Source of the DNA: Yuukianura sp. NJ FZ-2021
Lineage: Eukaryota
Reading direction: 5' to 3'
Assembly: GCA_046563655.1 (NCBI GenBank)
Contig: CM102286.1
Location: forward strand, 10,230,001 to 10,294,000
DNA length: 64,000 nt
The stretch's first letter is position 1, and the number at the start of each line of letters is the position of its first letter. Made by a program: the position numbers and the translations under genes. Shown here piece after piece: positions 6,580 through 48,406 of the stretch. The notes beneath the pieces were generated by a model. It was not told where the DNA came from, made no database searches, and saw only the letters and a list, made by a program, of their open reading frames with translations.

Positions 6580-7110
6580 TCATTTGTTAAATAAGTTTAT
6601 GCACAGCACAACCATTGAAATAGATGCCTCATAGGAATCTGAAGCGGTATTTTGGATGTCATCGACTACTTTGTGCAAGTGGGAATCGACAGTTATTGTG
6701 TCATTGCTTGCTAAAATATCAAACTCGAGTAAACCTGTCATATGTGTTTTGATGTAGACAACCGCTTGCCGAATTTTTAGTACCAGTTCTATCGGCAAAG
6801 CGGAACCTATTCCTACATTGCTCATTCCACGGCGAATAATGTTATCAGCATCGACAGCATTGCAAATAGTTTGCATTCCAACTTTTCCCAATGCTCCTGT
6901 GCACTTTTGTTTCAAACTTGTGACTTCCATTTCGCATATGGAATATGCTGCACCGACATAGTTTTCGCAATACAACTTCCAGGAACAGAGGGATCCCTCC
7001 ATCTCCGTCAAAACATGCATCATAACAACTAGGTGTGAATGCATGGGATCAGTAATTTCATTCTTGATTTGCATTCCAGTCTCACCCAAGGCTTGGAAGC
7101 TTTCCAGCAC
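6580..7110 (-). CDS. Hypothetical intronless ORF (176 aa), duplicated at 9018-9473; probably a fragment of mobile-element or viral cargo
   Basis: The two copies encode nearly identical proteins. No family recognised. Lies among Maverick fragments. Confidence 0.35.
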   Translation of the reverse strand: MLESFQALGETGMQIKNEITDPMHSHLVVMMHVLTEMEGSLCSWKLYCENYVGAAYSICEMEVTSLKQKCTGALGKVGMQTICNAVDADNIIRRGMSNVGIGSALPIELVLKIRQAVVYIKTHMTGLLEFDILASNDTITVDSHLHKVVDDIQNTASDSYEASISMVVLCINLFNK

Positions 7111-8900: not shown

Positions 8901-10554
8901 AAATTATACTATCTCCAAGTTGAGTTCCGTAAAAAAGTTTTGATTCATTTTCGTCTTCTTGAAATCCCTCATGTTCACGGTCACCCGCAACATTTTTCAC
9001 CAAAATTGGTTTGGATTCTAAAATATGACGTTTTTGTGCAAGTTGGAATCGACAGTTATTGTGTCATTGCTTTCTAAAATATCAAACTCGAGTAAACCTG
9101 TCATATGTGTTTTGATGTAGACAACCGCTTGCCGAATTTTTAGTACCAGTTCTATCGGCAAAGCGGAACCTACTCCTACATTGCTCATTCCACGGCGAAT
9201 AATGTTATCAGCATCGACAGCATTGCAAATAGTTTGCATTCCAACTTTTCCCAATGCTCCTGTGCACTTTTGTTTCAAACTTGTGACTTCCATTTCGCAT
9301 ATGGAATATGCTGCACCGACATAGTTTTCGCAATACAACTTCCAGGAACAGAGGGATCCCTCCATCTCCGTCAAAACATGCATCATAACAACTAGGTGTG
9401 AATGCATGGGATCAGTAATTTCATTCTTGATTTGCATTCCAGTCTCACCCAAGGTTTGGAAGCTTTCCAGCACTCAGCCTTAAGTTTAAGTTTAGCGCAA
9501 GTGTCCTGGAGAACTACACGACCCTACAAATTTTATTAAAACAACCCATAATGATATGCGCATATGTGATGGAAATTCACTTAGCCAAACATGGAAAATT
9601 TTGTATAGTTGATAAGTTACTTGGACCGTGATCCTCGACTTGAAGCAAGTTATAGCAGAAATGGCTTATGCTTCCATTCATACGCTGCAACATCGTTCAT
9701 GATTTGCAGTATCGATATGATGGCTTTCGTTTGTATTCGCGTGGCACTAAAGGTGTATTTACAATATTGGCTTTCTTCGGCACTGATCTCATTGTACATT
9801 GGGGTTCTGGTATGGAAATACAGTTCGTCATTTAATGTGAGGTTAACCCTTGTGTCAACATGTAGCACCTGAAACTGAATCTCCCTCGTGTACAACGAAA
9901 TGAAACACGGTAGGGCGATGCTCACGGGTTGAGCATAGGTCTTTTGTAGGAGTAGATACGACTTAACTCATGTTCGAGCGGCCACAAAACCAATGAACAA
10001 AAATGAGAAACCGGTTTCCCGAGACTCATGCACCAGAGAGTCGTTTGTAATTTTCAGTGCCTTCACTGGTGCTTCTTTGTGCACGAGTTGCTCCAAAATT
10101 CCGTTGGCAATTTCACGATTTAATTGGACCAAAACTATTGTTCCAGTTTGCAAGCCCAAAATATATGCACTGAACCAAGCTTGTTTAACTTGCAATTTTG
10201 TTTATTTCTTTTTAGAAGGTTATGTCAAAACTCCGCGATTCTTTTTTTCAAATTTTTTGAACCGCACATCTGACGCGGCTGCGTTGCGTTAGCAATTCGG
10301 AATCAAAACTATGACTCAGCAACGTGAAATTTAAAAGATTATTGTGAAAATCAACAAAATTGGTATAAAATTGGTTCAAAAGTATTGTTTTTTCTTGTTT
10401 TTTTTAAATCGGAGTTATGAAATAACCTCTTACGCCATTTAAATAAATGTTTAAATTGTCTAAATTTGTATAAGTGGTCGCTATAGCAATCTTGCGCAGA
10501 ACTGACGTTCTTACAGATAATGTATTGTAGATATTGCTAAGGCAATATACACTA

Positions 10555-23304: not shown

Positions 23305-24264
23305 TGGGAACTATAGCAGAGATGTTCACTCTTCCACTTCTAAAACCAGACTCCCAATTGATACAATGACGTGCTACCATCTAAGGTTAAGCGATAGTAC
23401 GAAATGTTCCGGGTTTCAACTGTACTAATGAGGTGGTAAAGAAATTCCAGGCCATCACTGTAGGTCAACGACCATTCACGTCATCCGGGTCGACCCGGTC
23501 ACACTCGCTACTGTCGTAGTACAAGTATTCTGAGGTACAATGTCGCACTGAGGTCGAAAGAAACGTAGAGATGATTGAGTGCGACCCACTGACCCAGTCC
23601 TAACCATTATCAGACGTGATGTTGCACTTGCTTCTGCAGTTGAAGTTAATCAAATTGCGAAAAACTGCCTTAATTAGAATTAAAACCTAATTTGGAATTC
23701 TAATTAAGTAATCCTAAACACGGTACCTTTCATTTCAAAAACAGAAGAAATTATTAAAGAATAGAAAATGGGTTTGAAATTAGCGGGTCGACCCGCAAAA
23801 GAAAAAAAACCTTGGAGTGAGGCAATGTGAGACACGATGAGCCAATCGGAAGCGAGCAACTTTTTTGGAAATGAAAAGTTGAGTGATCGCTTCACTCATA
23901 CAACTTTCCTGTCCAGTGTGAACAGAAAAGTTTCGGGAACCTGAAACTTTTGTTCCCGAAACTTCGGGCACAAGTTCCTATTAACTTTTTCACCTAATAT
24001 GAACGCGAGTTCCCTCAAGTTTCCAAAACAAGTTCCTTGATGCTAGGAACTTTTGGCCTAGTGTGAATGCAACCTTAGTTTAAACTTTTCGGCTTGTCAT
24101 GATGACAGTGCAGAAACTTATCTTATCAATGGAGAAGGTGACTAATGAGAGTTCCAGTGCAAATTTGGGTAAAAGTGCAAGGTTGAATTGCACCGTGTGG
24201 ATTGACAGATTCGAGGTGAGTTTTGACGTATAATTGCATTTCGAAATCGTTTAGAAAGACAAGG

Positions 24265-27200
24265 ATGGAACCGATTGACGTTTTGGCTGCTTGCGAGCAC
24301 TACTTGCTATGTTGGAATCTTTCTTCAGACGTACCTTTTGACAACATTGAAGCAAGAATGAAGAAAGTTAATAAACTGAAGGTTTCGACTAATTCGGACG
24401 ACAGAGGAGACAATAATGGTGCTTACTATAGAGTCAAAAATCTGCAGTCCTCCTTGGTCCCATTTGTGCAACTGTTTCTGGAAATTGTTGCTGAAGAGCT
24501 GGAAAAGGCAAAACAAACGCTGGAGGACGTTCAAACTGTGATTAATGCAATGGAGTTTGACCAGAGATACTTTGGTGGATTGACGTACTTGCATGAATTG
24601 GTCAAAATACACTTTAAACTGGCTTTTCAAAATGTCCCGGGATACGAAGACATCCAGGATTACATCCAGGTGCGTGATCCACTCCCGACAGTCTTGGACT
24701 TAAATGCAGAGTACAGTGGCTTGGAAAAACAGAACAAGTGTGTCATCGTTTTAGCTCGACGGATGCTTAACTTGACGCATAAGCGCAGTAGTCGTGACAA
24801 AGGACTCCGCATGATGAGACAGGTAACGTATAAGGCATCAAAGCAACGCAAAACTTAATTTAAAGCTTAATTCCTGAGTCAGTAAAATCCGCAACGTATA
24901 GCGAGCGTTAGAGTTTTTAGTCTTCTGGAGACGCATGTCTACGACATGCTGAAGAAGACTATTGATACGACTTTGTCCGTCTGTCCGTTCGCTTTTTTAG
25001 GATCTTTTGCGCTGAAACATTAGCCCCCATCTGTTCGGGGAGTTATGTATGGCTGAAGTGTTTTCAGTATGTCTACATTGCCCTCAAAGTGCAATATTAC
25101 CAACGTAGAAATGGGCGATTGCTTTGCGCTGATGGTTCTTAACTCCTCAAAATTCTGTGTTAGGTCTGCATTACACTAAAAAAAATTTTTAACAGCAAAG
25201 CTTTGATCTGGACATTTTCTGACAGTATGTTTATTTACGTTGTTAATTTGTGACTGATGAGAGGGCTCAGAATCCGGCTTAAATTTGTAATACGTAAGCA
25301 GTGCTTGGCAGGGTTCAAATTTGTCTTTGCAAGGAATTTTTATAATTTTGATTATAAACTAGCGCTTTTCGGCTCAATAACTTATGCACTAAATTTAATA
25401 CACTGTGCATTTTCATGAACCGATTTCGAATTAAAAGAAGGGATATTCTACCCATCCTCCTCGGCGTTGAATTTTGTGCATCATGCGCAAAGCTCAACTT
25501 CGACATCATCAAGGTAACTAAACATAAATACACAAGCGCTTTCTAAGGTAGTCTCACGAGCGGTTTTTAATATTTTTTTGCGATATTTTTTGGTGGGGCG
25601 TATTGTTCGGTTTCCAAGGAAATAAACCTGTATAAAATTCGTGCTAAGGTTGGTTGACGTAACAATGATGTGTTAGTTCAATCAGCGTTCAGTATTTTAC
25701 GCAAATCAACTATTTGTCATTGAGATGCATTGAACTCGTGGTAATTATAAGCGTAAAATTTGCTTACTCGATTTTCAAATCCCAAAATCAATGTAAACCA
25801 CTAGCCCGATGATTGGGTACACTGGATGGTCACAATGGAGGAATTTGATTTTGTACTTCGACCGAAGGAAAACGTTGTCAGAGGAATGTTTAAAAAACAA
25901 ACAATCCGCCCACCAAAAATATCGCAAAAATTGCTGAAAAAACCGCTCGTGAGACTACCTTAGACAGAGCGTGTGTATTAATGTTTAGTTACCTTGGATA
26001 TCATTATTTTGACGCCGTTTGGTTTACGCGTTTTTCGCTAATACTACAATGCCATGGCAACACCGACAATACATTATGTGCATCTTGCTCAACAAATTAA
26101 GAACATAAATTTAGTGCAAATGTTTTGGTGTTCAAAACTGCAATATGATTTTGGTGCAATTAAATGGTAGAATTGCCAACCCAGTTTTGGTGCAACTCAT
26201 GCACAAAATAGGACATCACACCCGCACTTTTGAGCGACATTTGAAAATTTTGAGCGACTTTTTGGTGCATCAGCTACATCAAAACGGTTTCTCAGTTCTT
26301 CTACAGTTTTGAGGCAGGCCGGTTTAAGTCGTATCAATTGTCAACTCATTCCAGAAGACCTATATCCTTGAGCATCGCCCTACCCTTGTTTTTCTGTATT
26401 TTGAATTCAGACACAATTTAAATTTTTCGCGTATGGGTATATATCGCGCATGGGTATAATTTATATATATATATCTAGGTATATATACACGATAACCAAT
26501 ACATGATGAATATATATTCGGAGTACAGTGTATCTTCTCAAATGTGCATAAAATGCTACGGGTGCCTAAAGTAATTCTTTTTTTTTAAGATTATTGAGCT
26601 GGATCCAGAAAATTGGTACTGGTATTACATTTCGTACGACAATATACATTTCATGAGAAGAAATCCCGACGCCGGTGCTGATAAGGACTACATGCCATCC
26701 ACCGAAGAAATAGAGATGGTGTCCAATGCACTGAAGTACGTCGGTAGCGACCAGGCCATTAGCAGACTCAATTGCAATGCCATTCTATGTCAGTGTTTGG
26801 CAGAAATTGTGGCATGCCAGCATAGCAAAGGACTAGACGAACCAGTAGTTTTGGACAAACCATACGACTGTGTAAATAAAATGGTGGAGCACATAAAAAA
26901 TTCTGCAAGGTACAACAAATGTAAATTTTCTTTTTCTCAAATTCAGAAATATTTGATTTCTATAGCACTTTTTTTACTTTTGAAGCGCCGCCTTACCATC
27001 ACAATATTGTGGATTTAACGACTTCATTCGTTTTGGAGAAATTTTAGGAATAACTCTTCCACATGGCATGCGTGACTACAAGACGTCTCTAGAATTTTTG
27101 AAAAAGGGCAATACAAAGCATAACAACAGTTCTAAGGGGCACCACAAAATGGGGGTCGTCATCGTCAATATTTTAAGAATGAAACAAAATTTTCTTCACA

Positions 27201-28191
27201 ATATAGATGAAACCGAACGTGCTTACTGGCGTGCATGGGTATTTTTTTAATATTTTTGTTTCTTTAGTTTCTTTACGTTAATTTCAGTTTCTATAAGTTT
27301 TTTAAGGTTAATGAAATCTTGCTTCCTAACCTAGACAATTTAACCTAGATAAAACAGCTATTACTGTGAAACCTCTCCGTTCGCAACGCGTTAAACATGA
27401 TTGACGTATGTAACGTATGAGAACATTTTGTTTACGTTGTTATTAACAATGCCTCATAAATCTATCCCTTACGGTACCCGGGTACATTGTGATGCGCAAC
27501 TTTCTGAAGAACTGGGTATACCCAGTTCTTCAGAAAGTTAGCAGTGAGGGTTTCTACAGTAGTTGCTTAACCTTTCACCACTTACATGTTACATTCAAAG
27601 TATTTCAGGAAGGGAGCATGAAGGATGCAATTTTCCATTTTGAAAAAGCGATTGAGCATGGGCCGGATAGTTTTCCAGCCAGGACGGACCTCCTTCCTGC
27701 GCTCATGCGAGATTACGAGGAAAACAAAGACAAAATAGAAAACGTTCTGGACGATGCTCTGACAAACGACCATCAATGGAGCAACAATGAGTTCGGAGCG
27801 TTTTATTTCTACAAAGCGTGCTATAAATTCCTCACAGGATCAGATGTTGAGGCAGTCAAACTATTGCGGGACGCAATGGAAAAGAAATTCGACGGCTTCA
27901 AAGTAAGAAATATAATAAACAAATTGCATTTTTAACGTACAAAGTTTGTGGAATATACGTTAAGTTGTTGTTGATATGATTTTTCAGGACCTTGGTAGAA
28001 TAAAGTCGCGCTATGGCTGGCGGAATTATCAGTTGACTTTTGACCATGTACTGGACATCCTTGACAATGTGTCTAGGCGGGAAACGGATGGGAATGTATT
28101 GGACGAAATCAGCGATGTTCGAGACTGTGTCGCTGAGGCACAGAAGAAGACAAACGAATTCTATCGGCGGAGAAATTCCAGACAAAATTAG
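24265..28191 (+). CDS. IFIT-like tetratricopeptide-repeat protein (5 coding exons, ~540 aa)
   Basis: Exons ~24265-24822, 26590-26909, 26986-27237, 27609-27901 and 27989-28191. Colinear IFIT-type motifs: CEHYLLCWNL, IELDPEN, SLEFLKKG..HHKMG, AIFHFEKAIE..P..ARTDL and SDVEAV. Confidence 0.72.
25510..25996. mobile_element. Palindromic MITE (possibly a Harbinger-like MITE inside another) in intron 1 of the TPR gene
   Basis: caaggtaactaaacataaatacac..taaggtagtctcacgagcgg is inverted to ccgctcgtgagactaccttag..gtgtattaatgtttagttaccttg. Confidence 0.7.
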
Positions 28192-28309
28192 AAGAAGAGA
28201 GAACTACAATCAGTCCAGCCTCGAAGCTATGCCTCACATTCCGTAGGGTCATCATGGAATTAAATAAAGCAAAATCAAATAATTAAGCTTTAAAAACATA
28301 TTTTTTAAG

Positions 28310-29521: not shown

Positions 29522-30592
29522 CCGTGTGCGCCAGCGAAAAGAGTACACCCTCAATTCAGTTTCCAAGGAAACAAGTTTTAAAATGGGCAAACAATGGGGG
29601 CGGGGGGAAAACGAGAGAGCAAAATCTGTGAAAATCGTGTTTCCTTTTTTTTTTCAAGAAAGAGGAAATTATTAGCCTGTCGATATTTCTTTTTCGTTTA
29701 TCGTTTAATTAGGAACTGCTTCGTTCTACATAACGCCTCAGTATACGATTCAGCATCGCGCAGAAATGGTAGCTTATTACTATCAACAGTCTAGTTTTAG
29801 AAAAGCCCAGAGTGTTTTCAGTGCCGTCCATCCAAATCTTCCGATTCCTAGTATTTTTACCATTCAGAGAGCTGTGAAGAAACACGAGATACACGGCAGC
29901 CAAGAAAATCGAAAAAGAGTCGGAACCAAAAAAGCCACCAATGACATGACCGCTGCATCCATTTTACCCTACGTTTCTGCAAATCCACATGACTCAACAC
30001 GACGAATTGCACAGAGGTCAGGAATTTCAGCAACTTCTGTACGAAGAATCCTGAAACGCGAACGGTTTCATCCATATAAGATGCAATTCCATCACGCCTT
30101 AACTGACGATGACCCGAAAAGACGAATCGAATTTTGTGAGCAAATGATGGACATGTGCCTGCAGGATCCCACTTTGGTATCAAAAATTTGTTTCACTGAT
30201 GAGGCCACATTCTTTTTGAATGGACGCATGAACCATCAAAACTTTCGGTTTGTAATTTCCACTTAACCTATTCTTGTGATTCCGAATCAAATTAAGATGA
30301 AATTATAATCGCACTAGGTATTGGTCGGATTCGAATCCACACTGGATGAGGGGGTCCAAATCTCAAAATGCTCCAAAGATCAACGTTTGGGCTGGTGTAA
30401 TTGGTGACACCATTATTGGCCCTTTCTTCTTTGAGGGAAACATAAATGGTGAAAACTTCTTGGACATGCTGGAATCAGAAATAATTGGGCCCGCTGAAAA
30501 TATGTAATATGTTTCCCCTCATAGTTTCCTTGGTATCGAAAATAAATAAGGTTTTGAAATTTTGGGTGTACTCTTTTCGCTGGCGCACACGG
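29522..30592 (+). mobile_element. Tc1/mariner-superfamily transposon, internally deleted, with an intron-containing transposase
   Basis: 29-bp perfect TIR ccgtgtgcgccagcgaaaagagtacaccc and TA TSD. Reading from ~29766: HTH region, HPYKMQ, CFTDEATF..NHQNFR, intron, YWSDSNPH..INVWAG..IIGPFFF. Ends before the second catalytic Asp. Confidence 0.9.
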
Positions 30593-30637: not shown

Positions 30638-32513
30638 TTACGAAGTAAGTGGGATGTCACAGAGAAGTGCTACTCCGCGAAGAACCAATTGTTTGGGCGG
30701 GGTGTCGGTCTAGAAAGCAATATATCCAATGTAGTTGGGGTCCGTCCGACGCGGGTTCCTGTAAATTGGACACTCGAACAGCCGCGGATCTTTGGCCTAA
30801 GTTGTGTTCACTGCAAAGATGAAGATGACTGGAACGGGTTCGTAAGAGCACTTTGGGCTTGCTGTCCACCAACTTCCCAGAACGTTTCTCTACGGAGGCT
30901 CCCTCCACGTTCAGGCAATGCACGTACACACCTGAAACAATCATATTTTACATTATGTAACAAAAAAGAAGAAGCCGGGTGGGATTGAACCCACGTCACT
31001 TCTCCCTCTATTCAGGAAAATAGGCCAACCAAGTGACTGATTCCATTTCTCTGCGATTAGGCCAATTTCATTCCGATACACAACTTTGTTATTATAATTA
31101 CCTTCCATCGGTGGTTGGTTGGGGGCGAGTTGGCTCATTGGTTAAGCCATTAATGCTTTTCAATTGGCCGACCTGGGTTCGCACCCAGTCAGCGGGAGAA
31201 AAAAGGAGTCGAGGCCGTGGGTCCTCCCTGTCCCGAAGCAGGGAGGCAAGTGCTGGACTTCTCTTCTTTCCGGCGGCTGGTGCGTGGACACCCCCAGATA
31301 AAGGAGTATATTCGGGGTACCGCATCTGCAAGCACTGCCTGTTGTGGTTACGGAAGGAGCTGGCCATGAGTCAGAGGTGCCGTAATCATCAGTATCGGCG
31401 GGTAAGAGCTTCGCAGATTGTGGTGGTTGCCGATTCCTACTGCTTGAACCAGTGGATTAAGCATAGATACACTTTCGATCTCATTTGTCTATCAATTACG
31501 GACGACCTCCGTAAAGGAATAGCATTGAAGATTACCGTAATGTGTATCTGCTCGTAAAAGACAAAAAATAACGCTGTTTCTAAAGGGGTTAGGCTGAAAT
31601 ATACCATAAGCGTATCCTCAGCGTGAGTCAGTCACCTAATTATAGGTGACTGCTCCCCCCAATAAAAATACATATCGCTGGTTGGTTGATGTCTTCCTTC
31701 CAGAATCGAGTGACGACGTTCTGCAGAACGACGGAGTCCAACGCCCATCCTTTGTGTGCCCGTGTGACCTCCTTTGTTCAAACAAACATTTTGAAAAAAA
31801 AACTGTTTCAGAATTCTGAACACTTTTTTGAACAATTTTTTGAAAATTTTCTCTACCTGACGCATGGCGGTAAGGAATACTTGTGGATTGAAAAACCCAG
31901 TCATCCAGAAAACTGGTGGTTTTCCAAACGACAACCAACTGCGATAACTGGTTACACCGCTCCAGCAGTTCAGTAAACCAAAAGCCAATGGAACTCGAAT
32001 CCCAGCAAATCTGAAAAGTCAAAATTTCAAAAACTAATTTCAAAACATTTTGAAAAAACGATTCCGAAATTTATGACTTACCTTCCTCCAAGTTGGTGGA
32101 ACTTGTGCATTGTACATTGCGTCGAGTGACTCCCGTAGCACACTGCTCATGATAATTGTTCCGTCAATTGCCAATTTCAAATCACTCAAAGTTTGGCGCA
32201 CTACTAACAAAACTTTGCCCATTCGATCCAACTCCTGTTTCAGAAAAATGTTCATCGGAAGCAGAGATCCTAGCTTGCTCAGCGCATCTTTCACCTAAAA
32301 CAAACCTTTCAACTTAATTAACTACACAAGTTTAACTCAACAATTAATTGCACAGTAATTAACTACTTAAGTTAACTAAAACTTGATTACCTGAAAAGAG
32401 ACGTAGGGAAGAGGCAACTTCCTGAACATTTCATCCGCCAGACGATACACAACGTCCTCTCGTGACTCTCCGCCTGCACTCCCGCTCTGTTTCGGCTGAA
32501 CTCCGAGAATCAG
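30638..32513 (-). pseudogene. Axonemal outer-arm dynein heavy chain (DNAH5/8-like) C-terminal fragment
   Basis: [86 protein letters not shown] and LRGVALLCD. Introns retained; frameshifts and stops present; unrelated DNA at ~30960-31680. Confidence 0.88.
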
Positions 32514-32515
32514 AT

Positions 32516-34200
32516 GCAGATGCATGGGGTAAATTCCCGGAAGGTCTTCTGTCTGGCCACATAGGCATGATGGGCGACTTTGAGGAGTGCATGCTCATGC
32601 GCGGAAGTATTCAAGATCAAAGCGCTTCAGTTCCATTTGGAGGTCGCTATTGTCCAATGCATCTGGTCATGTCACAAGAACTTTTGGAAAACATTAACAC
32701 AAATTTTAGTTCCGAGGTTAGAAATCAAACTACTTTTAACTTTTATTTTCATTTCATTTTCAAAAAAAAAAAAGTCTTTTTTTAAATCAGTGCATGAAAA
32801 TCAGAAATACTTTTTTTCAAATATGTTTCTTTAGACGGATAAACTCCAGGTTTGTAAACAAGAAAATAGTTTTTTCTTCAACAGGTTAGGCAATAACTCA
32901 AGCGTTTTAAATGTTGTTTAAAAATTAACAAAACTTGGTTCACCGTGCCTTCCTATGGTAATGATTTATATGGAATCAAATGGGATTAGAGTAAAATCAG
33001 AGCAAAAAATTGTTTGGAGCGAATTTTTTCCTAAACAGCACTTATTGCCAAACCTCTTAAAGCATTTCGTTGCTATAGAAACCTTGGATAAACTAATTTA
33101 CTCGATTGGCGAAGAATTTAATTTTTTAATGACGCAACCAACTCTGGCAGTTTGTCTTCCGACAGCATGCACTCGAAACGATTTCAACATCTTGTTCAGT
33201 TCATTGACCTCGGTAACTCAAGGTTTGATGACCCCTATCACCTCTTACTGTCAAACAGATGATACACCAACACTTGACGGAGCAGTTATTGCAATGATGT
33301 ATGAACTTCAAAATTACAAAAGCCCGATAGGTGTATTGATATTTAAAAATTCGATTTTTCAGGGTATTGGTAGTAGCACTGATCTTGTGCATCACTTTAG
33401 TTGCAAGTGGTTTAGATCTTCTGCTGGATCAGAGTTCAAGGTCATCGTCAAAACTCTGGAAGGCGTTGATGTCATTTTCAGTGCCAAGAAATGTTCAAAG
33501 GTTGACTTCGATTAATACGTCGGAAGACTTGGGATGTCTCCATGGCCTGCGGTTTGGAAGTATGTCCTGGGTAGTGCTGATCCATACTTCGAGCATTATT
33601 TCTTACTGTGCAATCGGGAATTCTTTCAGAATGAATATAGTAAGTATTTTTAACTTTGAAAAAAATATTAGCATTTTAATTTGATGTTGACTTTTTTTTG
33701 GATTGGTTACATGGATAGGATGGTCTTGCGCCACAGCAACTGCTCTGGCTGCAGTCTACGGACCTGTGCGGTTCTTTGACCATGACATTCCGCTAGGAAA
33801 AGTCGAATCCGTACTCTACGGAGGACTGGCTCGATTTGCATGGGGAGCTGTAGTTGGGTGGATAATTTTTGCATGCTTATCCGATAATGGCGGACCGATA
33901 AATGGGTTCCTGTCGGCGAAACCTTTCGTACCGCTCGGTAGAATAACGTTTTGTATGTATCTGGTTTCTTATGAACTTCAACAAATGTTTCATGCTCGCT
34001 ACCCGCATCCACTGTCTTATGATGTCTATTTTTTGGTAAGTGATACATAAAGTATTTAAACATATTATAAAACTAAGGTTCTGACTATTTTTTTATAGGT
34101 TAACTTGTTTTTGACGCTATCGATTCTCATCGGATTTTGGATAACAATTTTAATTGAAGCTTCATTCACCAGCTTAACTAAAACTATTTTAGGAAACTAA
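32516..34200 (+). pseudogene. Truncated duplicate of the NRF-6-like acyltransferase
   Basis: High similarity to 11983-14339 including introns. Lacks the 5' exon and the block equivalent to ~12912-13835 (junction at ~33705); frameshift near 33365. Confidence 0.9.
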
Positions 34201-34249
34201 AACTAACTAAAAATTAATTTTAACATAGATATGAATTTAGAAAGTTAAA

Positions 34250-35645
34250 TTAAAATGTGAGAAGGAGATTGATGAGTGTTCCAATTACTATGTCTTGCAT
34301 CACAATGGGATAGCTATTTTTGGCAACAGTTATATTTCCGATTTTCAAACGAATAACCGGAGCTGATCTGAGAACTGCTTTGTTCAGGCGAGAGTTTGCA
34401 AACTCCGCGAAAATTTCCCTGAACTTTATAGAATTTTCTGTGATATTGACATAGAATTGAAGGCAAAAATAGAGCGCCACTGAAGAATTAATAACACATA
34501 ACCCCATGAAGGAAATGGCGGCAATGCTCAACTGTCCCCAGAATCTAATGATGCAGAACAGAGCGGTTGAGACAACGTTAGCAATAACGCATACGTTGAG
34601 CGGTCCAACCGTTTTCACAAAATTATCCATCAGTCTTGCAACAACTCGAAACGTTCTATCCAGCATTATTTCTTTACCACGCAATTGCTTTGAGGCCAAC
34701 CTAGTATAAGAACAAGTTATTTAAAGTAAAAGCGTAAATAATATAAAATATACATAACTTACTTTTTGTTTACGAATGTTTGCCATTTCCCAAAGTTGTA
34801 TAGGTTAAAAAGGAAGACGTTGGCCATGCAAAACATCGTTTGTGCAAAATCAATTGCGATGACGCATGATGCGAAAAGAGAAACTAAGAATCTACCGCCA
34901 TAAATCAAATCACAAACTTCCTGGAACGGTTTCAAAAAATATAATTTCGGTTGACCAGAAAGTCGAACATGGCAATCACGGTGAAAAAACCAAACGCATG
35001 GACTCCGCATGCACAGTAAAAATAGATGAACTCACTCAACCGGTTACGGAGGACTGGGCCACTTCCTAATTCGGCAGCTATGGATCAAAAAGTGTTTTAA
35101 AAAAGTGTTAAGCTTTTAAGAAAAAAAAAACTCGTAATGGCGGCGAATTAGGAAATACAGGGAATCGAATTACCGAAATTCCAAATTACCCCTAGCCTAT
35201 CATTGAGGAAGACACTTCGGTAAATGAACCATACTGTCTGACCGTTCCAAATTTGTCAACCTACACTACGTTTCCTTCTTACCAAATGTTTTATCCATTA
35301 AGTTCATGCCATTGATGTAATTAACAATAGTAGGTTGTGGAAACGCTAAGATGTATGGAGAAAAATATATGCCAGAGAGAAGTATCCCTTGGAGGTATAG
35401 AAATATTTCTTTCCCAGTCGTGATTGGATCAAAAATTTTGTAGGCGCAAAAAACAATTACAAGAATCTTGATGCCAACTAAAATTGCATACAATGGTCTC
35501 CACAATTCGAATTGTCGTTTACAGATTCTACTTGAAGCAATTTTATAACAATTTCCACTTGAGTCCCATTCAGCCACGGATAAATGAAAAAAGTTCCAGA
35601 ATTCAAAAAGAATCGCTGGATTTTTAAAATTGATGGAGTGATCAT
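34250..35645 (-). CDS. Gustatory/odorant-receptor-like 7TM chemoreceptor (3 exons; one frameshift in a T6 run near 35590)
   Basis: Multiple hydrophobic helices; C-terminal S.P.IRLKIG…IGTLINLLLTF resembles the arthropod GR/OR TM7 end. ATG at 35645 is one base out of frame with exon 1. Confidence 0.6.
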
Positions 35646-39196: not shown

Positions 39197-42100
39197 TCAC
39201 ATCCCATTCCGTTTAACATTGAAATCTAGCTTAAATTTGATTTTCACTTTAAAGCCCGTTATTGACTTCAATTTACGCTTATTCAATAAATTCCTTCCAA
39301 AAACTTCAATCAAAGCTGAAATATTTGAAACGACATGAAACACAATTAGAATGCAACACATCTTTCGCATGAAAGCATTAACACCGAATGGTCGCTTGAT
39401 GCCTTGCGGCTTCTTTTCTTCGCGAATCAAAATATTTCCTGGTTCGGATGGATGAAACTTAGACATCCATTTTGCCCAAATGTGGTAGATGTCATGCGCC
39501 ATCAAGTCCAATATCCCCCTGTAAATGATCTCCTTCCCGGGATCACGCTGCTCTATAACGAAACCGTCCCATTTCTTCAATATTTTTTTACTTCCTTTTA
39601 CAAGTTTCGGCCTATTATTCATGTGTTTGCTAACAGAAATAACAGCTTCCAATGCTTCTTCTGTATCAATGTACCCAATTCCACTACAGTTCTGTATTTC
39701 TGTCACCACTTTCTTATAGAACTCTTCCAGTGGCTCAAATTTCTGAAACGGTAAATGTGTAAATATTGCCCTCGAAAACGGTAGTGGTGAAGATACATAA
39801 CTTTTCGTTTCTAAACTTTTGTTGTGACCAACGGCACCTATATAATCGCATTGAAAGAATCCGACATTTTTCGGCAGCACACCAAAATTTTTGTAGTAGC
39901 TGATTGCATTTTCAACATTATTTCTCCCTGGTCTTATGTTGCAAACTGGAGGTTTTAACGACACGTGAATTTGTAAATTCAAGGACTTAACTATTTCAAC
40001 TACCTTGTCACAATTTGCCGCCAATGAATTATCAATTTGATGGCTTTTTGCAAGTCTGGAGCATAACCGAGGAACTATTTCAGTGACATCCGGGTAACAA
40101 AGACAGGGTTTGATAAGGCTAATATCTAAATAGGTGAACGCGAAATTTTCTTCATTCTGTGTTTCTGATTTCAAGTTCAGAATGTTATCCTCCCAACCGT
40201 CCGAAATGAAAAACTTCAGCTCTTCAGTTTCAGAAGCTTCATCTATACGTGTTTTAGTCATGAAATTTTCCATACATGTAGTCCCGGACGTAGCACGTCA
40301 TTACATCAGATCAATTACGTAAGTGACAATTATATAAGTGACAAAGACATCAGTGTCAATTACATCAGTACTACAAACACATCAGTAGTACAATTACATC
40401 CAAAGCATTTACATCAGTGACAATTACATCAGTGAGGCAATTACATCCAAAGCATTTACATCAGTTATCAAGTTACAACACAAGTGGTTCTAGTTTTCCG
40501 CGCCGAAGGCGCGGTGTTAGGTTTTCTAAAGTTCGCAATACGGATTACGTCTCGCAGGTTTAGAATTTTTCAGAATTTTACTTTAATTACTCATGTTAGG
40601 TTAGTAGTAGCCAAAATTTTAAAAGTAATTAATTTTAGAAGCTTTATTATTTAAATGAAATTGTCTAATACCAATATGATATAATTGCTCTTGATGTAAT
40701 TGTAGCATTGATGTAATTGTCACTGATGTAAATGCTTTGGATGTAATTGCACTACTGATGTGTTTGTAGTACTGATGTAATTGACACTGATGTCTTTGTC
40801 ACTTATGTAATTGTCACTTACGTAATTGAACTGATGTAATGACGTGGAAGCGTCCCGGATGTCACCGCAGCTTTGTAGATACTTAATAGAATTGTTATTA
40901 TTAAGGTCCAAAGTGTCAGAATTCGTAGCGCTGTACTGAAGTTGTTAAGGACTTTTTTGAATGAGTGCGATGGGTGAGCATTTGCTTCAAAAATCAGCGC
41001 AAAGTTGTAAAAAGCTGAAATGAAGATGGAATTGAAGGATGCACGCCAGTCGCCTTCGAAATGCTTGTAAGATACGATTAATACTGTGATAGGTACCAAA
41101 ATAAAAGCAAAACTGATAATGATTGACCATGCGACGGCACTGAAAGGCTTTAAATAAATTTTGATGGTTAAATTCTGCTCCAGGTCGTTACATGTTATAA
41201 AATTAAAATAATTTTCCCGCGTCGGAATGAATCTGTAAAAGTCCGGGTTTGGAGTATCGATGTTTCTAAAGTCTTGTATTTTGCCTGTAAACTCCTGTTG
41301 ACTTAGCATAAATTCTAGTACAGATGTGGCGTTTGAAAAGTCAATGCAGGGGGTAATTGAAGTGGTACAATCGAAAGGATCTGGGAGTACTCTAATATCA
41401 AATAAAGTGAGAGACAAGTAAGTCATTACGAGCTCTGGAGTCCATCTAACTGCGTTTTTATACCCGAAAGGTGGCAACGGTTTGAAGGGATTGTTTAACA
41501 AATCATTTAGTAACTCGCCGATATTTATAAAACTGGAGTTAATGAGTGTCCTCCAATTGTAAAAATGCGAGAGATGAGTCTCGGCATTTGTGCAACCCAA
41601 CGCAAATTTTCCGCCATACAAAATATTGTCCAAACTACTTTCTGCCGTTTTACGACAATTTTCATAACCACTATGGACACAGCTTGTAATACTTTCTAAA
41701 TACAATACGTGTGGTATATCCTGTTTTCCAGTTGTAGTTAATGCCTCCAAACTCCAAAACCATTGGCGCCAATCAGGAACGACATAAAATACAACAACAG
41801 ATAAAATTTCCGACATGTAGTACTCAATCCCTAAGCTGTCGCTATCAAGTTTCATTTGATTTCCGTAAACTATTAAGTACTCATGAATATCTTGTTTATA
41901 CATACGGATCAACTGCGTGCTTTCCATCATATTTTCATCTTGATGTTCAAAAATATTGATATATATTTTTGCACTTCGATGTACGAATTTTATTGCGACT
42001 TCAGTTACACTGTCAGAGAAGTCACTGAAGCTTTGAAATTTAAGTGCAGGAAACAAAAAGAAATAACAAAAACAAAAATTTCTTTTACGCAACTTCGGAG

Positions 42101-42326
42101 AAGTGATAAGGGATACGTTGTCGTTAATTAGTTTGACTGGTACCGCCAAACGGTCCTGTAAATCTAGCGGTCTGTAAAAATTAACAATTGATACTTCAGA
42201 ATCGGAATACTCATTCACCAAATGGTCCAACATTTCTATTCGATACGACACAAGAGATTCTGAACTAACAACCCTCAGAACACACGGCAGACACGCAATT
42301 GCGAAGACGCAGTTGAGGCAACACAT
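39197..42326 (-). pseudogene. Divergent ionotropic-receptor-like gene disrupted by a MITE
   Basis: Colinear paralog of 45700-48195 (NFITC..YLKPFS..W; YKAAVTS). Removing 40289-40851 and one TSD joins AAVTSGT to TCMENF in frame. Confidence 0.8.
40289..40851. mobile_element. Foldback MITE with ATTACATCAG-motif arms and 8-bp TSD
   Basis: TSD GTCCCGGA at 40281-40288 and 40852-40859, ~150-bp inverted arms, and the shared core ccgcgccgaaggcgcggtgttagg at ~40498. Confidence 0.92.
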
Positions 42327-43511
42327 TTCGGTAGTAGTTTCAGTATTTATCAGAACTCGTGTCTTACAGCGGTATAGAATGAACAATGTTAAATAGCTCT
42401 GAGAATTTTTGTGTTAGAAGGTCTAACTTATAGGTAGTTATAGTATGTTAGAATTCGTACTGGACATTGGACTGTAGTAGACGAAAAACCACATTCAACT
42501 TCGTGTCGAGCTGCTTCATAACTAAATTTATGATTTTAGAAATATTAAACATCAAGTATCGTCACGGACTCAAATATTTTGTACCTTGCTCCGCCCCGAC
42601 CTTGACCCCATATCAACCACACGAAAGGCAAAACTTATATTTTTTATCCTTCACTCCTTCTCAAAAACGTTCGAGAATTATAAATCATTCATTATATTCT
42701 TACATTAGTAATTATTCGTATTTGTGCCGTAAGACTCTTGGATGATCATCTCAATATTGTTCAATAACCTAAGCCGAAAAACGTATGCTTTACCTTGATG
42801 TGCTTGAATTTTTTGATATGATGTGACGTACGTGAAACAGCTCGTCCTGGCTTACCTTCTTCGGTGTTGTACGATCAACTTTCAAACGGGTCAACGTCAT
42901 GTTATCTGTTACAACTTGCTATTAAAAAACTTAACGTTTTGCGGGAAACAGATTGAACGCATTGACGACTACGAATTACTAATCGAATCTAATAGTTGCA
43001 TAAATATTGTACAATGACTTAAAACATTAGGTTGTATCAATTTGAAACATCAGCTTCATCATGCTTGATAGTACCAAGAAGCAGTTTATGTCAAATTCAC
43101 CTAACTTTGCACCGAAAATTTAGGTTAGGTTAGGTTATGGTTTTTGTACGTGAGTGGTAAAAGTGGTTCCGTTTCAAACTCATCCTTACTTATACACTGT
43201 AAACAAGAAAAATAGCGCAAATCGTATGCAGCACTACATACAGCTTTTAGGAACCACTTTGGTTCGCCAAACGTATTAAAAAGTGAGAGATAGAATAAAA
43301 ATGGAAGTTTGACCTTTGTACCTTCCTGTTGCATCTGTTTGGATAATGAGCACAACCGCATCAAATCAATTTTTGAGTTCAGCAGTATCAGAATCTAATC
43401 ACATCACACAACAAATCTCATCAGAATTTACACGGCAGCATGCGCATTCTCCTGGGACTTATTTTTAGTTTTAGTTTCGCAATTTAAGTTAACTAGTGGA
43501 TCCGTTTGATA

Positions 43512-45699: not shown

Positions 45700-48195
45700 T
45701 CAATTGAATTCAAATTCAACAATGATTTCAATACATGATAATTTTATGCTTCGAATTCGATTCAAAATCAACTTGTACGGGACAACTTCGAGGACGAATG
45801 TGAAACTGGACACGGTAAGTAGGAGTACCAACACATAAAATATTGTGATAATATTCGACGTCATGGTCAGCGCCCGTTGTTTCGGTTGTGCATATTTTTT
45901 CGCATTTTTCAACAATATTTGTGCACTTGTAGGGTTAGTTATTGGAATCCATTTTGCCCAGACGTGGTAAATGCCATGAGCCATTAAATCCAAAACCCTT
46001 TTGTAAATAAACTTTTGTCCTGGAGTCCTATCTGCGAACATAGTTCCTCTCCAGAGTTTTAGTATTGTTTCATCGGCCTTACGAAATTTTGGACCAGGCA
46101 TATTTTCCGCCACAGAAATAATTGCGTCCAGCTCATCTTCGTAGTCTAGATGCCCTACTCTTGTACAATTGGACAATTCTTGTACAATGTTCTTGTAATA
46201 TGCTTCAGGCGACATGAACGGTGTTACAGACGTCATTGTAATTGTAGCCTTTGCAAATGGTAGTGGTGAATATTCCTGTACTTGAGAGTTAGCAGTAATA
46301 GTTGTGCTGTGTACGATTCCAGTGTAGTCGCAAAACCACGTTCTAACGTTGTCAGGTAAAGTATTATTTTTTCTATAGTAGTCAATTACGCCAGTTAGAT
46401 ATTTTTGCCGATAGCGATACTTACAAAACGATGGAGTGACGAATTTGTTGGGTTTAAAACCCATTAGGTGCATGACTTCGAATATTTCATCGCACGTTCT
46501 ATTACTTCGCTCGATTCCGTGCCTCACACAAAGCTTGGGAATAATTTCTCTTACATCGGGGTAGCAAAGGCACAATTTTAAATTTGATATGTCGGTGTAG
46601 TTAAAGGAATGCAACCGTTGAAGTTTTGGATTGCCACGAATGTATTCTATCTCATTTGAGAATTGATCAGTAGTAGTAAATGTGAAGTCATTCGCTTGAG
46701 AAGCGCGGGTAATTTGCTGTCTCAATGCCCTGGACCCTGATGTAAGGTCAGATGTAACTAAGCCCTTGTAAGCATTTACTAAAACTAAAATCATCATTCC
46801 CCAAATTGCAAAAAACTTCCTTGAAGTTTTCAACATATTTACAATTTTGTTAAAAAATTGAGGCATCTGAGGGCTAATTTCGAATATGAATGCAATGTTG
46901 TAAAAAATTGTGTTGAAAACGTAGTTCAGTAGAACGGGCCACTTTGGAATCTTACTAAAATTTATCGTTAAAAACAGCATTAGAATTGGTATCCAGATGA
47001 ACATAAAACTGAGGAGAAGAATCCAAGACCACTTATCGTACGGTTTAAGATAAACCTCAAACGGTAAATGCTGAGATACGCCGTCGCAGGTTTCAAAATT
47101 AAAAAATTCTTCCCCAGTTGGAATAAATTTGAAGTCATAATAAATAATATCTTTCCAATCAGCGTCATTCCCCCCAATACGCTGCAATGAACTCATTTTT
47201 CCATGCAATCTTTGATTCCGCAAATAGCGTCCTAAATTCGCAGACATGGTAGATTGTATCATAGCCATTTTTATTTCAAACTGCGCCAGTGCTAAGTAGG
47301 TCATAATGTCTTCGGCAGTCGTTTCATATTTATCAAACTCAAACTCATATACTTTCTTGAACGGATTGTTAAAGAGTCGGTTGAGTAAAGCACCAACGTC
47401 AGTAAAGTCATGATTAATCAGTGATTTATTGAAATAGTAAGCATAGTTATTAATCCTGTAACGACCTGTCCAACATCCCACCGCTAATTTTCCACCGTAC
47501 AAGGTATTGCCCAACATCTGCTCCGCCGCATTACGACAATTTTTTCCTTCCTTTTTCATATCACATCTTGAAATGCCGCGAGTGTAGATCCGCAGAGTCC
47601 TGTAGTATTTTGTAGCCCATCTTGGTTTAGTCTCCCTCCAAAACCATTCGTATCGATGTGGAACGTCATATATTACCGTCACCCTATAGATCTCACAGAA
47701 AGAATGCGGTCTAAATCCACCGAACTTCTTTCGTAAGCGGTAAACTATGACGTACTCGTGCATTAATACCTCATCGCTATCAATGAAGTGGGATTTAATT
47801 CTGAACTTTTGGTTTTCAAATTTAATAACATTTGTATATATAATTGCAGTAGTATGAATGAAATCAGTCGTAACCACAGAAAACTTGCGCGACATTTCTC
47901 TATGGTCGTAAAATTTCTTCTCAAGAAATACAAAAAAGAAACTAAAGCAGAAGTTAGATTTCCGAAAAATTGTAGAGTTGAGAAATTGAACAGAGTTGCT
48001 GATTTGAAATGGTACTGCAACACTTGGCTGTAAGTGTAAAAGTGAGTCAAAAAGAACTAAAAATACCTCACAGTCGGGATATTCGTTCAACAAGTTGTCG
48101 AAATTTTCGACCTCATAAGTGTTGCCAGTGATAGCTGAGATGGCGAAATGACTTAAAAATAAGCACAAAACAGCAAAAAACTTCACACAACACAT
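45700..48195 (-). CDS. Divergent ionotropic-receptor (iGluR/IR)-like membrane protein, intronless, 831 aa
   Basis: Signal peptide, pre-M1 YLKPYDKWSW, M3-like RKFFAIWGMMILVLVNAYKGLVTSDLT, and a C-terminal M4 preceded by ALTM.SNI. Confidence 0.7.
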   Translation of the reverse strand: MCCVKFFAVLCLFLSHFAISAITGNTYEVENFDNLLNEYPDCEVFLVLFDSLLHLQPSVAVPFQISNSVQFLNSTIFRKSNFCFSFFFVFLEKKFYDHREMSRKFSVVTTDFIHTTAIIYTNVIKFENQKFRIKSHFIDSDEVLMHEYVIVYRLRKKFGGFRPHSFCEIYRVTVIYDVPHRYEWFWRETKPRWATKYYRTLRIYTRGISRCDMKKEGKNCRNAAEQMLGNTLYGGKLAVGCWTGRYRINNYAYYFNKSLINHDFTDVGALLNRLFNNPFKKVYEFEFDKYETTAEDIMTYLALAQFEIKMAMIQSTMSANLGRYLRNQRLHGKMSSLQRIGGNDADWKDIIYYDFKFIPTGEEFFNFETCDGVSQHLPFEVYLKPYDKWSWILLLSFMFIWIPILMLFLTINFSKIPKWPVLLNYVFNTIFYNIAFIFEISPQMPQFFNKIVNMLKTSRKFFAIWGMMILVLVNAYKGLVTSDLTSGSRALRQQITRASQANDFTFTTTDQFSNEIEYIRGNPKLQRLHSFNYTDISNLKLCLCYPDVREIIPKLCVRHGIERSNRTCDEIFEVMHLMGFKPNKFVTPSFCKYRYRQKYLTGVIDYYRKNNTLPDNVRTWFCDYTGIVHSTTITANSQVQEYSPLPFAKATITMTSVTPFMSPEAYYKNIVQELSNCTRVGHLDYEDELDAIISVAENMPGPKFRKADETILKLWRGTMFADRTPGQKFIYKRVLDLMAHGIYHVWAKWIPITNPTSAQILLKNAKKYAQPKQRALTMTSNIITIFYVLVLLLTVSSFTFVLEVVPYKLILNRIRSIKLSCIEIIVEFEFN

Positions 48196-48406
48196 TTTTT
48201 TGAAAACTTCACAACTTGTTTCAATTTCCGGTGAAAATGTTGCTTTTCAATATGTTATATTGAATATTGAGAAGCTATAATAAAATACTAGGTAATTTGA
48301 ATCAAGTGAGAATAAAACAGTATCTGATTGTGTAGTCACCTTTCCTCCAGGCAAGCAAACCTCAAACTAATAATTATTTTAAGCTACAAAAGAAGCTTGA
48401 ACCATC

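Follow-up and report, generated by a model that had tools for sequence, protein, structure and literature searches.

Does the arthropod gene at positions 24265-28191 of a 64-kb stretch of contig CM102286.1 of Yuukianura sp. NJ FZ-2021 (the window, positions 10,230,001-10,294,000 of the contig) encode a protein like the IFITs, the vertebrate interferon-induced proteins with tetratricopeptide repeats, as was proposed in a preliminary description made from the sequence alone? In the excerpted text of the study of Liu et al. (PMC3688568), IFIT genes are said to have originated with jawed vertebrates and to be absent from invertebrates. No report of a springtail or other arthropod gene resembling IFIT was found with a literature search in which the term 'ifit' also matches IFITM, and invertebrate IFIT homologues are not mentioned in the excerpted text of five further articles (PMC10917227, PMC9334734, PMC6723221, PMC4887208 and PMC8636641). 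The interpretation that we favor, with a probability of roughly 0.6, is that the locus is a five-exon gene for a tetratricopeptide repeat (TPR) solenoid protein which belongs to a small, fast-diverging family, with the IFIT/TTC22 group as its nearest, probable remote relative. The IFIT reading itself is a lead rather than a finding: the family is an uncharacterised TPR family with a partial, weak likeness to IFIT1, given that two of the five proposed motif pairs with IFIT1 were reproduced, both in exon 4, and that a grouping with TTC22 or generic TPR proteins is not escaped.

A complete five-exon gene

The gene is encoded on the plus strand by five exons whose joined frame of 1629 nucleotides consists of 542 codons and a TAG stop codon, with zero internal stops; the ATG at 24265 is the earliest in its open frame. 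Exon 1 (24265-24822; 186 codons, ending in phase 0) encodes the helical N-terminal region, in which no domain is recognised. Exon 2 (26590-26909; 320 nucleotides) begins with IIELDPENWYW and ends in phase 2, and the codon split there is completed by the first base of exon 3 (26986-27238; 253 nucleotides). Exon 4 (27609-27902; 98 codons), the best conserved part, encodes TPR helix B (AIFHFEKAIEHGP) followed by the family motif FPA..DL .. W .. F.KAC, and exon 5 (27988-28191; 67 codons and TAG) begins with DLGRIKSRYGW and ends, without an RG-rich tail, in the short basic sequence RRRNSRQN. All four introns have GT..AG borders in compatible phases (0, 2, 0 and 0): AGACAG/gtaacg ... tttttaag/ATT for intron 1, TGCAAG/gtacaa ... 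ttttgaag/C for intron 2, GCATGG/gtattt ... tatttcag/G for intron 3 and TTCAAA/gtaaga ... ttttcag/G for intron 4. When proteins of the family (see below) were used as tblastn queries, one copy was found within the 64-kb window.

This exon structure is supported by L001, a family locus that is itself a complete five-exon gene for a 616-residue protein (exons 397-948, 1040-1362, 1455-1641, 1737-2036 and 2120-2608). All four introns of L001 are located at the codon positions, and in the phases, of the introns in the window gene. Exon 1 has 184 codons in L001 vs 186 in the window gene; exon 2 of L001 is 37% identical to its counterpart, and both end in a split AG codon; exon 3 ends with TGG/gt in both; and exon 4 ends with ..GF(G/K)/gtaag in both. 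An alternative in-frame acceptor for exon 4 (exon start 27534, adding 25 residues), considered when a tblastn match ran into intron 3, was rejected because the acceptor of both L001 and another relative, L003, lies exactly 6 codons ahead of helix B, where the first model places that of the window gene; the shared dipeptide FQ is the acceptor tttcag translated in frame. The locus is an intact predicted five-exon gene, with the correct model being the original one, so the preliminary description of five canonically spliced exons encoding a protein of about 540 residues is borne out by the splice borders, the 542-codon frame and the intron positions shared with L001. The gene is intact and contains introns and is therefore not a vertebrate contaminant, as had been argued previously from its coding introns.

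A small, fast-diverging family with a springtail member

When exon 4 was compared with 1.84 billion representative proteins, 43 matched at E <= 0.001. The 11 of these that were read include three ordinary multi-TPR proteins of the bacterial type and eight relatives that match as one stretch, all of them short fragments (P0006, P0008, P0021, P0031, P0036, P0041, P0042 and P0045) with the common motif NFPA..DL ... W ... F.(K/E)GC. The other 32 were judged to be generic TPR proteins from the match table alone, where each shows several matching stretches, all on query residues 1-44. Through P0031, a longer relative was reached, P0049, a 606-residue 'unnamed protein product' of the springtail Allacma fusca (Collembola), which is colinear with exons 2, 3 and 4 of the window gene (tblastn, E 1e-5, 2e-5 and 3e-12, respectively), residues 173-274 being those that match exon 2. 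P0049 is the only member to which a taxon name is attached, the remaining ones coming from short JGI, ENA or Logan contigs, and this sole named relative agrees with the earlier assignment of the gene to an arthropod.

The global identity of the window protein is 33% to L001 over 510 residues (z 107 vs shuffled sequences) and 25% to P0049 (z 44). Residues 1-169, encoded in exon 1, align with exon 1 of L001 (E 8e-15), and Y13 and W17 within the EHY..CW motif are invariant in all three family members compared. Exon 3 of the window gene encodes a 22-residue extension after HHKMGVVIV which is missing from L001 and P0049. Exon 5 shows the weakest conservation, with no significant match to exon 5 of L001 (BLASTP, E 41); its initial residues include an R[YCF][GK]W motif common to P0049, P0031, P0036 and exon 5 of L001.

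A scan of metagenome contigs yielded three different family loci, L001 and L003 among them, from a single metagenome; several differing copies, one of them a probable pseudogene, are thus present in one metagenome. In L003, the region 1380-1470 contains a 66-nucleotide in-frame intron and an in-frame TAA located within the conserved TPR helix B, so L003 is probably a pseudogene. The family is small, fast-diverging (members are 25-33% identical), uncharacterised and patchy, and is so far found in Allacma fusca and on short contigs only.

A predicted tetratricopeptide repeat solenoid

TPRs are tandem helix-turn-helix repeats of 34 residues, and their recognition in the window protein depends on its relative. 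In exon 4, the only Pfam matches are to TPR families, all under the cut-off; no Pfam family was found in exons 2, 3 and 5, and none matches the exons of L001 at E <= 0.01. P0049 contains one canonical unit that passes Pfam TPR_1 (31.9 bits vs a cut-off of 27.8), and exon 4 is homologous to the TPR region of P0049 (E 4e-14). In the AlphaFold model of P0049, which has a predicted local distance difference test score (pLDDT) of 62.6, residues ~220-510 form confidently predicted helical hairpins, and nearly all of residues 1-193 are below pLDDT 50; the alignment behind this model probably misplaced N-terminal fragments, which may explain the poor N-terminal part. The top structural matches of the model are all TPR proteins (Z 12-13.7). 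Exon 1, when folded together with two relatives, gave an all-helical AlphaFold model (pLDDT 68.3, predicted template modelling score 0.69) whose best Foldseek match has an E value of 0.46, with none at E <= 0.001, and for which every chain compared by VIA stays below Z 8 (RapI is highest, Z 6.6; IFIT not listed). By homology to P0049, the C-terminal two thirds of the window protein are predicted to form a TPR solenoid. The helical nature of the protein that had been read from the sequence is thus upheld in part, by the all-helical models of exon 1 and of the P0049 relative; for the window protein as such, the support is partial.

Resemblance to IFIT

One indication of a relationship with IFIT comes from sequence and profile comparisons of the C-terminal region. 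A phmmer search of PDB sequences with exon 4 returned 18 matches at E <= 10, four of which are IFIT1; in the best of these, residues 4-33 align with residues 323-352 of IFIT1 (E 0.047). This alignment reproduces the AIFHFEKA..DL motif pair of the preliminary description. A profile built from 11 sequences for the region of exons 3-5 (A1) gave 104 matches, and IFIT1 is represented by four entries (E 2.4e-6 to 1.2e-4) among the best 60. The IFIT1 match is a single, colinear stretch of 112 residues of equal lengths (profile positions 14-125 to chain residues 314-425); designed TPR proteins and OGT outscore IFIT1 only through repeated matches at positions 6-44. With the canonical TPR removed from the profile (A3), seven matches remain and the top four are IFIT1 (E 0.14); positions 15-81 align with residues 349-416, which is the register of the SDVEAV/SDVNAI pair, so that this second pair is tool-aligned as well. 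The proposal that five motif pairs are colinear with IFIT1 therefore stands for the two pairs in exon 4, whereas the three in exons 1-3 were never matched.

Two further approaches, both applied to P0049, place IFIT proteins near the family. In an ESM Atlas feature search with residues 1-500, the nearest clusters are IFIT5-like (0.97) and TTC22 (0.97 and 0.96), followed by clusters of IFIT1-like, IFIT1B, IFIT2 and IFIT5 proteins, all at 0.96. In a Foldseek search with the P0049 model, IFIT5 (3zgq) ranks fourth (E 7.4e-7, 454 columns, TM 0.26/0.32), and when VIA is applied to the best chains found by Foldseek, IFIT5 ranks second (Z 13.1, root-mean-square deviation 6.8, 256 residues), with residues 166-500 of the model aligned to residues 88-452 of the chain.

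Numerous observations weigh against a specific relationship with IFIT. In the exon-4 phmmer search, a designed TPR protein and OGT (E 0.006) outrank IFIT1. IFIT5, IFIT2 and IFIT3 are missing from the best 60 of the 104 matches of profile A1. P0049 by itself matches IFIT1 with an E value of 0.17 only, and its residues 335-356 fall out of register, on residues 445-466 of IFIT1; a profile that spans all 606 positions of P0049 has 46 matches, none of them IFIT. No IFIT was found in the searches with exon 1 (two unrelated matches) or exons 2 and 3 (0 matches each), with the exon-1 profile (two unrelated matches) or with the exon-2 profile A11 (0 matches); exon 1 scored against longer proteins gave nothing and had no usable match in the ESM Atlas. 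The query of the feature search was the Allacma relative rather than the window protein, and a structure search of the Atlas with P0049 returned bacterial TPR clusters only. The window protein, which lacks the RG tail that is found in some of its relatives, is acidic (isoelectric point 5.9; 71 K+R vs 82 D+E, net charge -11). A generic TPR consensus can give matches of this strength. A conserved CHFTW motif is present in the N-terminal part of IFIT proteins, and much of the IFIT RNA pocket is located in that part.

The structural comparisons do not separate the candidates either. IFIT is within about one Z unit of SKI3, OGT, PEX5 and APC subunits; 688 of the 969 chains compared by VIA among the best Foldseek matches reach Z >= 8; and in a wider structure search, with 190 chains at Z >= 8, IFIT2 ranks eighth (Z 12.3). 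These searches fail to distinguish IFIT from OGT, SKI3 and designed TPR proteins. The preliminary description had named grouping with TTC22 or with unrelated TPR proteins as the outcome that would speak against IFIT, and it is from these proteins that the family is not set apart: TTC22 and IFIT score equally by features (0.97 each), and OGT and SKI3 tie with IFIT in structure.

Among known families, the vertebrate IFIT/TTC22 group is probably the nearest, with a weak resemblance. The gene is probably neither an IFIT nor a TTC22 orthologue but a remote relative, and we give slightly less than even odds to a genuine, distant kinship of the family with the IFIT/TTC22 group.

Alternative interpretations

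The most serious competitor, which we regard as possible although short of an even chance, is that the gene encodes an unrelated TPR adaptor, specific to its lineage and serving protein partners, with a likeness to IFIT and TTC22 that reflects only the shared TPR consensus. The top-scoring PDB matches are designed consensus TPRs and OGT, the hundreds of TPR chains that reach Z >= 8 tie structurally, and the DPEN and A..F..A...P motifs are generic TPR features. Moreover, in the excerpted text of Liu et al. (2013; PMC3688568), invertebrate sequences that matched IFIT in BLAST at E < 1e-6 are reported to fall with FKBP4, not with IFIT, and this tree result is a warning for matches of the IFIT-like kind. 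However, IFIT1 is the only natural protein that is matched as a long stretch past the canonical repeat among the best 60 of the 104 matches of profile A1, it remains on top once this repeat is removed, and among 7.7 million clusters, those of IFIT and TTC22 are the nearest by features, rather than the far more common bacterial TPR proteins.

It appears unlikely that the gene encodes a true IFIT-like effector, that is, a TPR protein that forms a closed clamp, binds 5'-ppp or cap-0 RNA in a basic tunnel and acts as an interferon-independent antiviral protein. In favor of such an effector are the colinear profile match to IFIT1, the proximity of IFIT clusters in the feature search and the colinear structural alignment of some 250 residues with IFIT5 and IFIT1 (17-18% identity), as well as the presence of RG/RGG tails in relatives and the multi-copy, fast-diverging family with a pseudogene, a pattern common among immune genes. 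Against it, TTC22 is tied with IFIT by features, there is no IFIT signal across the N-terminal 290 residues, and the net charge is -11, although the latter does not settle the question of a basic pocket. The gene structure differs as well: the excerpted text of PMC3688568 gives two exons for 46 of 60 vertebrate IFIT genes, the first consisting of the ATG and two bases only, whereas the window gene has five coding exons, with 186 codons in the first. Finally, IFIT genes are induced by virus or interferon through an interferon-stimulated response element (ISRE), and the 954 bp that precede the ATG of the window gene contain no GAAANNGAAA(CT) ISRE, STAT or kB motif.

A TTC22-type orthologue, i.e., a poorly understood housekeeping TPR protein with no immune role, also seems improbable. 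The TTC22 clusters rank second and third in the feature search (0.97 and 0.96), and the multi-exon structure suits a non-IFIT gene better; on the other side, the family is patchy, Allacma fusca being the source of the sole named relative among 1.84 billion representatives, and it is multi-copy with a pseudogene and therefore unlike a conserved single-copy housekeeping gene. That the locus is an unexpressed or decaying copy with a frame open by chance is suggested by the pseudogene L003 and by the transposon remains that flank and invade the locus, and is highly improbable given 542 open codons over five exons, four intact splice pairs out of four, conserved intron positions and 33% amino-acid identity over 510 residues.

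Possible function and significance

The product of the five-exon TPR gene that we favor would be a 542-residue, cytosolic, all-helical protein with a TPR solenoid in the C-terminal two thirds. As in other TPR solenoids, the concave face of the superhelix would hold the ligand. This ligand may be RNA or a ribonucleoprotein, a guess made because two relatives and one fragment carry RG/RGG-rich C-terminal tails (L001, 2120-2608; P0049, ~510-606; and P0031). RGG boxes commonly bind RNA. The last 110 residues contain seven RG/GR dipeptides in L001 and five in P0049, compared with one in the window protein.

The role as an antiviral sensor of RNA 5' ends is unsupported. A broader scenario, in which a fast-evolving branch of the IFIT/TTC22 group would be present in springtails in multiple copies, some of them RG/RGG-tailed, and would act as an interferon-independent, RNA-end-binding restriction factor, is best viewed as a long shot. 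If the gene is a true hexapod relative of IFIT, the origin of this type of effector moves back and is uncoupled from interferon; if the RNA-end-binding reading holds, IFIT-type defence is older than both vertebrates and interferon. The practical value of the analysis is a clean gene model together with a small set of relatives.

Genomic surroundings of the gene

The introns of the gene contain two inverted-repeat features: an insertion in intron 1 (25510-25996) that resembles a miniature inverted-repeat transposable element, whose terminal inverted repeats, 59 nucleotides each, are 93% complementary and lie 369 nucleotides apart, and a perfect 42-nucleotide palindrome in intron 3 (27498-27539) that overlaps the rejected acceptor with its exon start at 27534. 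A likely polyadenylation signal, AATAAA, read from the sequence, is located on the plus strand at 28263-28268, 72 nucleotides past the stop codon. The 954-bp region that precedes the ATG contains five GAAACT half-sites vs 1.0 expected, with no full ISRE; some of these half-sites (23920-24120) belong to a small inverted repeat (GTTTCGGGAAC / GTTCCCGAAAC).

Just upstream of the gene, a 237-residue open frame on the minus strand (22597-23310) shows no Pfam family above the cut-off. On the other side, 1.5 kb downstream, there is a fragment of the N-terminus of a Tc1/mariner-type transposase on the plus strand (29709-30266; Pfam HTH_Tnp_Tc3_2, E 6e-8, and DUF4817, E 2e-7). Farther away, two blocks with open frames on both strands (11891-14860 and 32426-34720) contain long identical peptides (for example, WGKFP.GLLSGHIGMMGDFEECMLMRG and GPINRFLSAKPFVPLGRITFCMYLVSYELQQMFHARYPHPLSYDVYFLVSD), which suggests a segmental duplication with copies ~20 kb apart that bracket the TPR gene. 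Two near-identical open frames on the minus strand (6580-7110 and 9018-9473) represent a repeated element or a recent duplicate. Three larger open frames on the same strand, of 366, 531 and 848 residues (39197-40297, 40818-42413 and 45700-48246, respectively), contain similar translated stretches, which suggests that they are paralogues.

Comparison with known TPR proteins

Generic TPR proteins share with the family the one canonical unit recognised in P0049, and the generic TPR superhelices (OGT, designed CTPR proteins, SKI3/TTC37 and APC subunits) have the best raw sequence and fold scores. These superhelices differ in that they repeatedly match only the single canonical repeat (profile positions 6-44) and not the family-specific stretch that follows. 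TTC22 equals IFIT in the feature scores (0.97 and 0.96) and is similar in size (496-514 residues), but the springtail family is patchy and multi-copy. From IFIT, the family is distinguished by the lack of detected similarity in the N-terminal 290 residues of the window protein, by five coding exons vs the usual two, by the lack of an ISRE upstream of the window gene and by the RG/RGG tails of relatives. The likeness to IFIT1 and IFIT5 nevertheless includes an all-helical TPR architecture with ~480-540 residues on both sides, the nearest position of the IFIT clusters to P0049 by language-model features, tied with TTC22, the structural alignment of 256 residues with IFIT5 at Z 13.1 and, for IFIT1, a family profile that is colinear with residues 314-425 and for which IFIT1 is still the top match without the canonical TPR.

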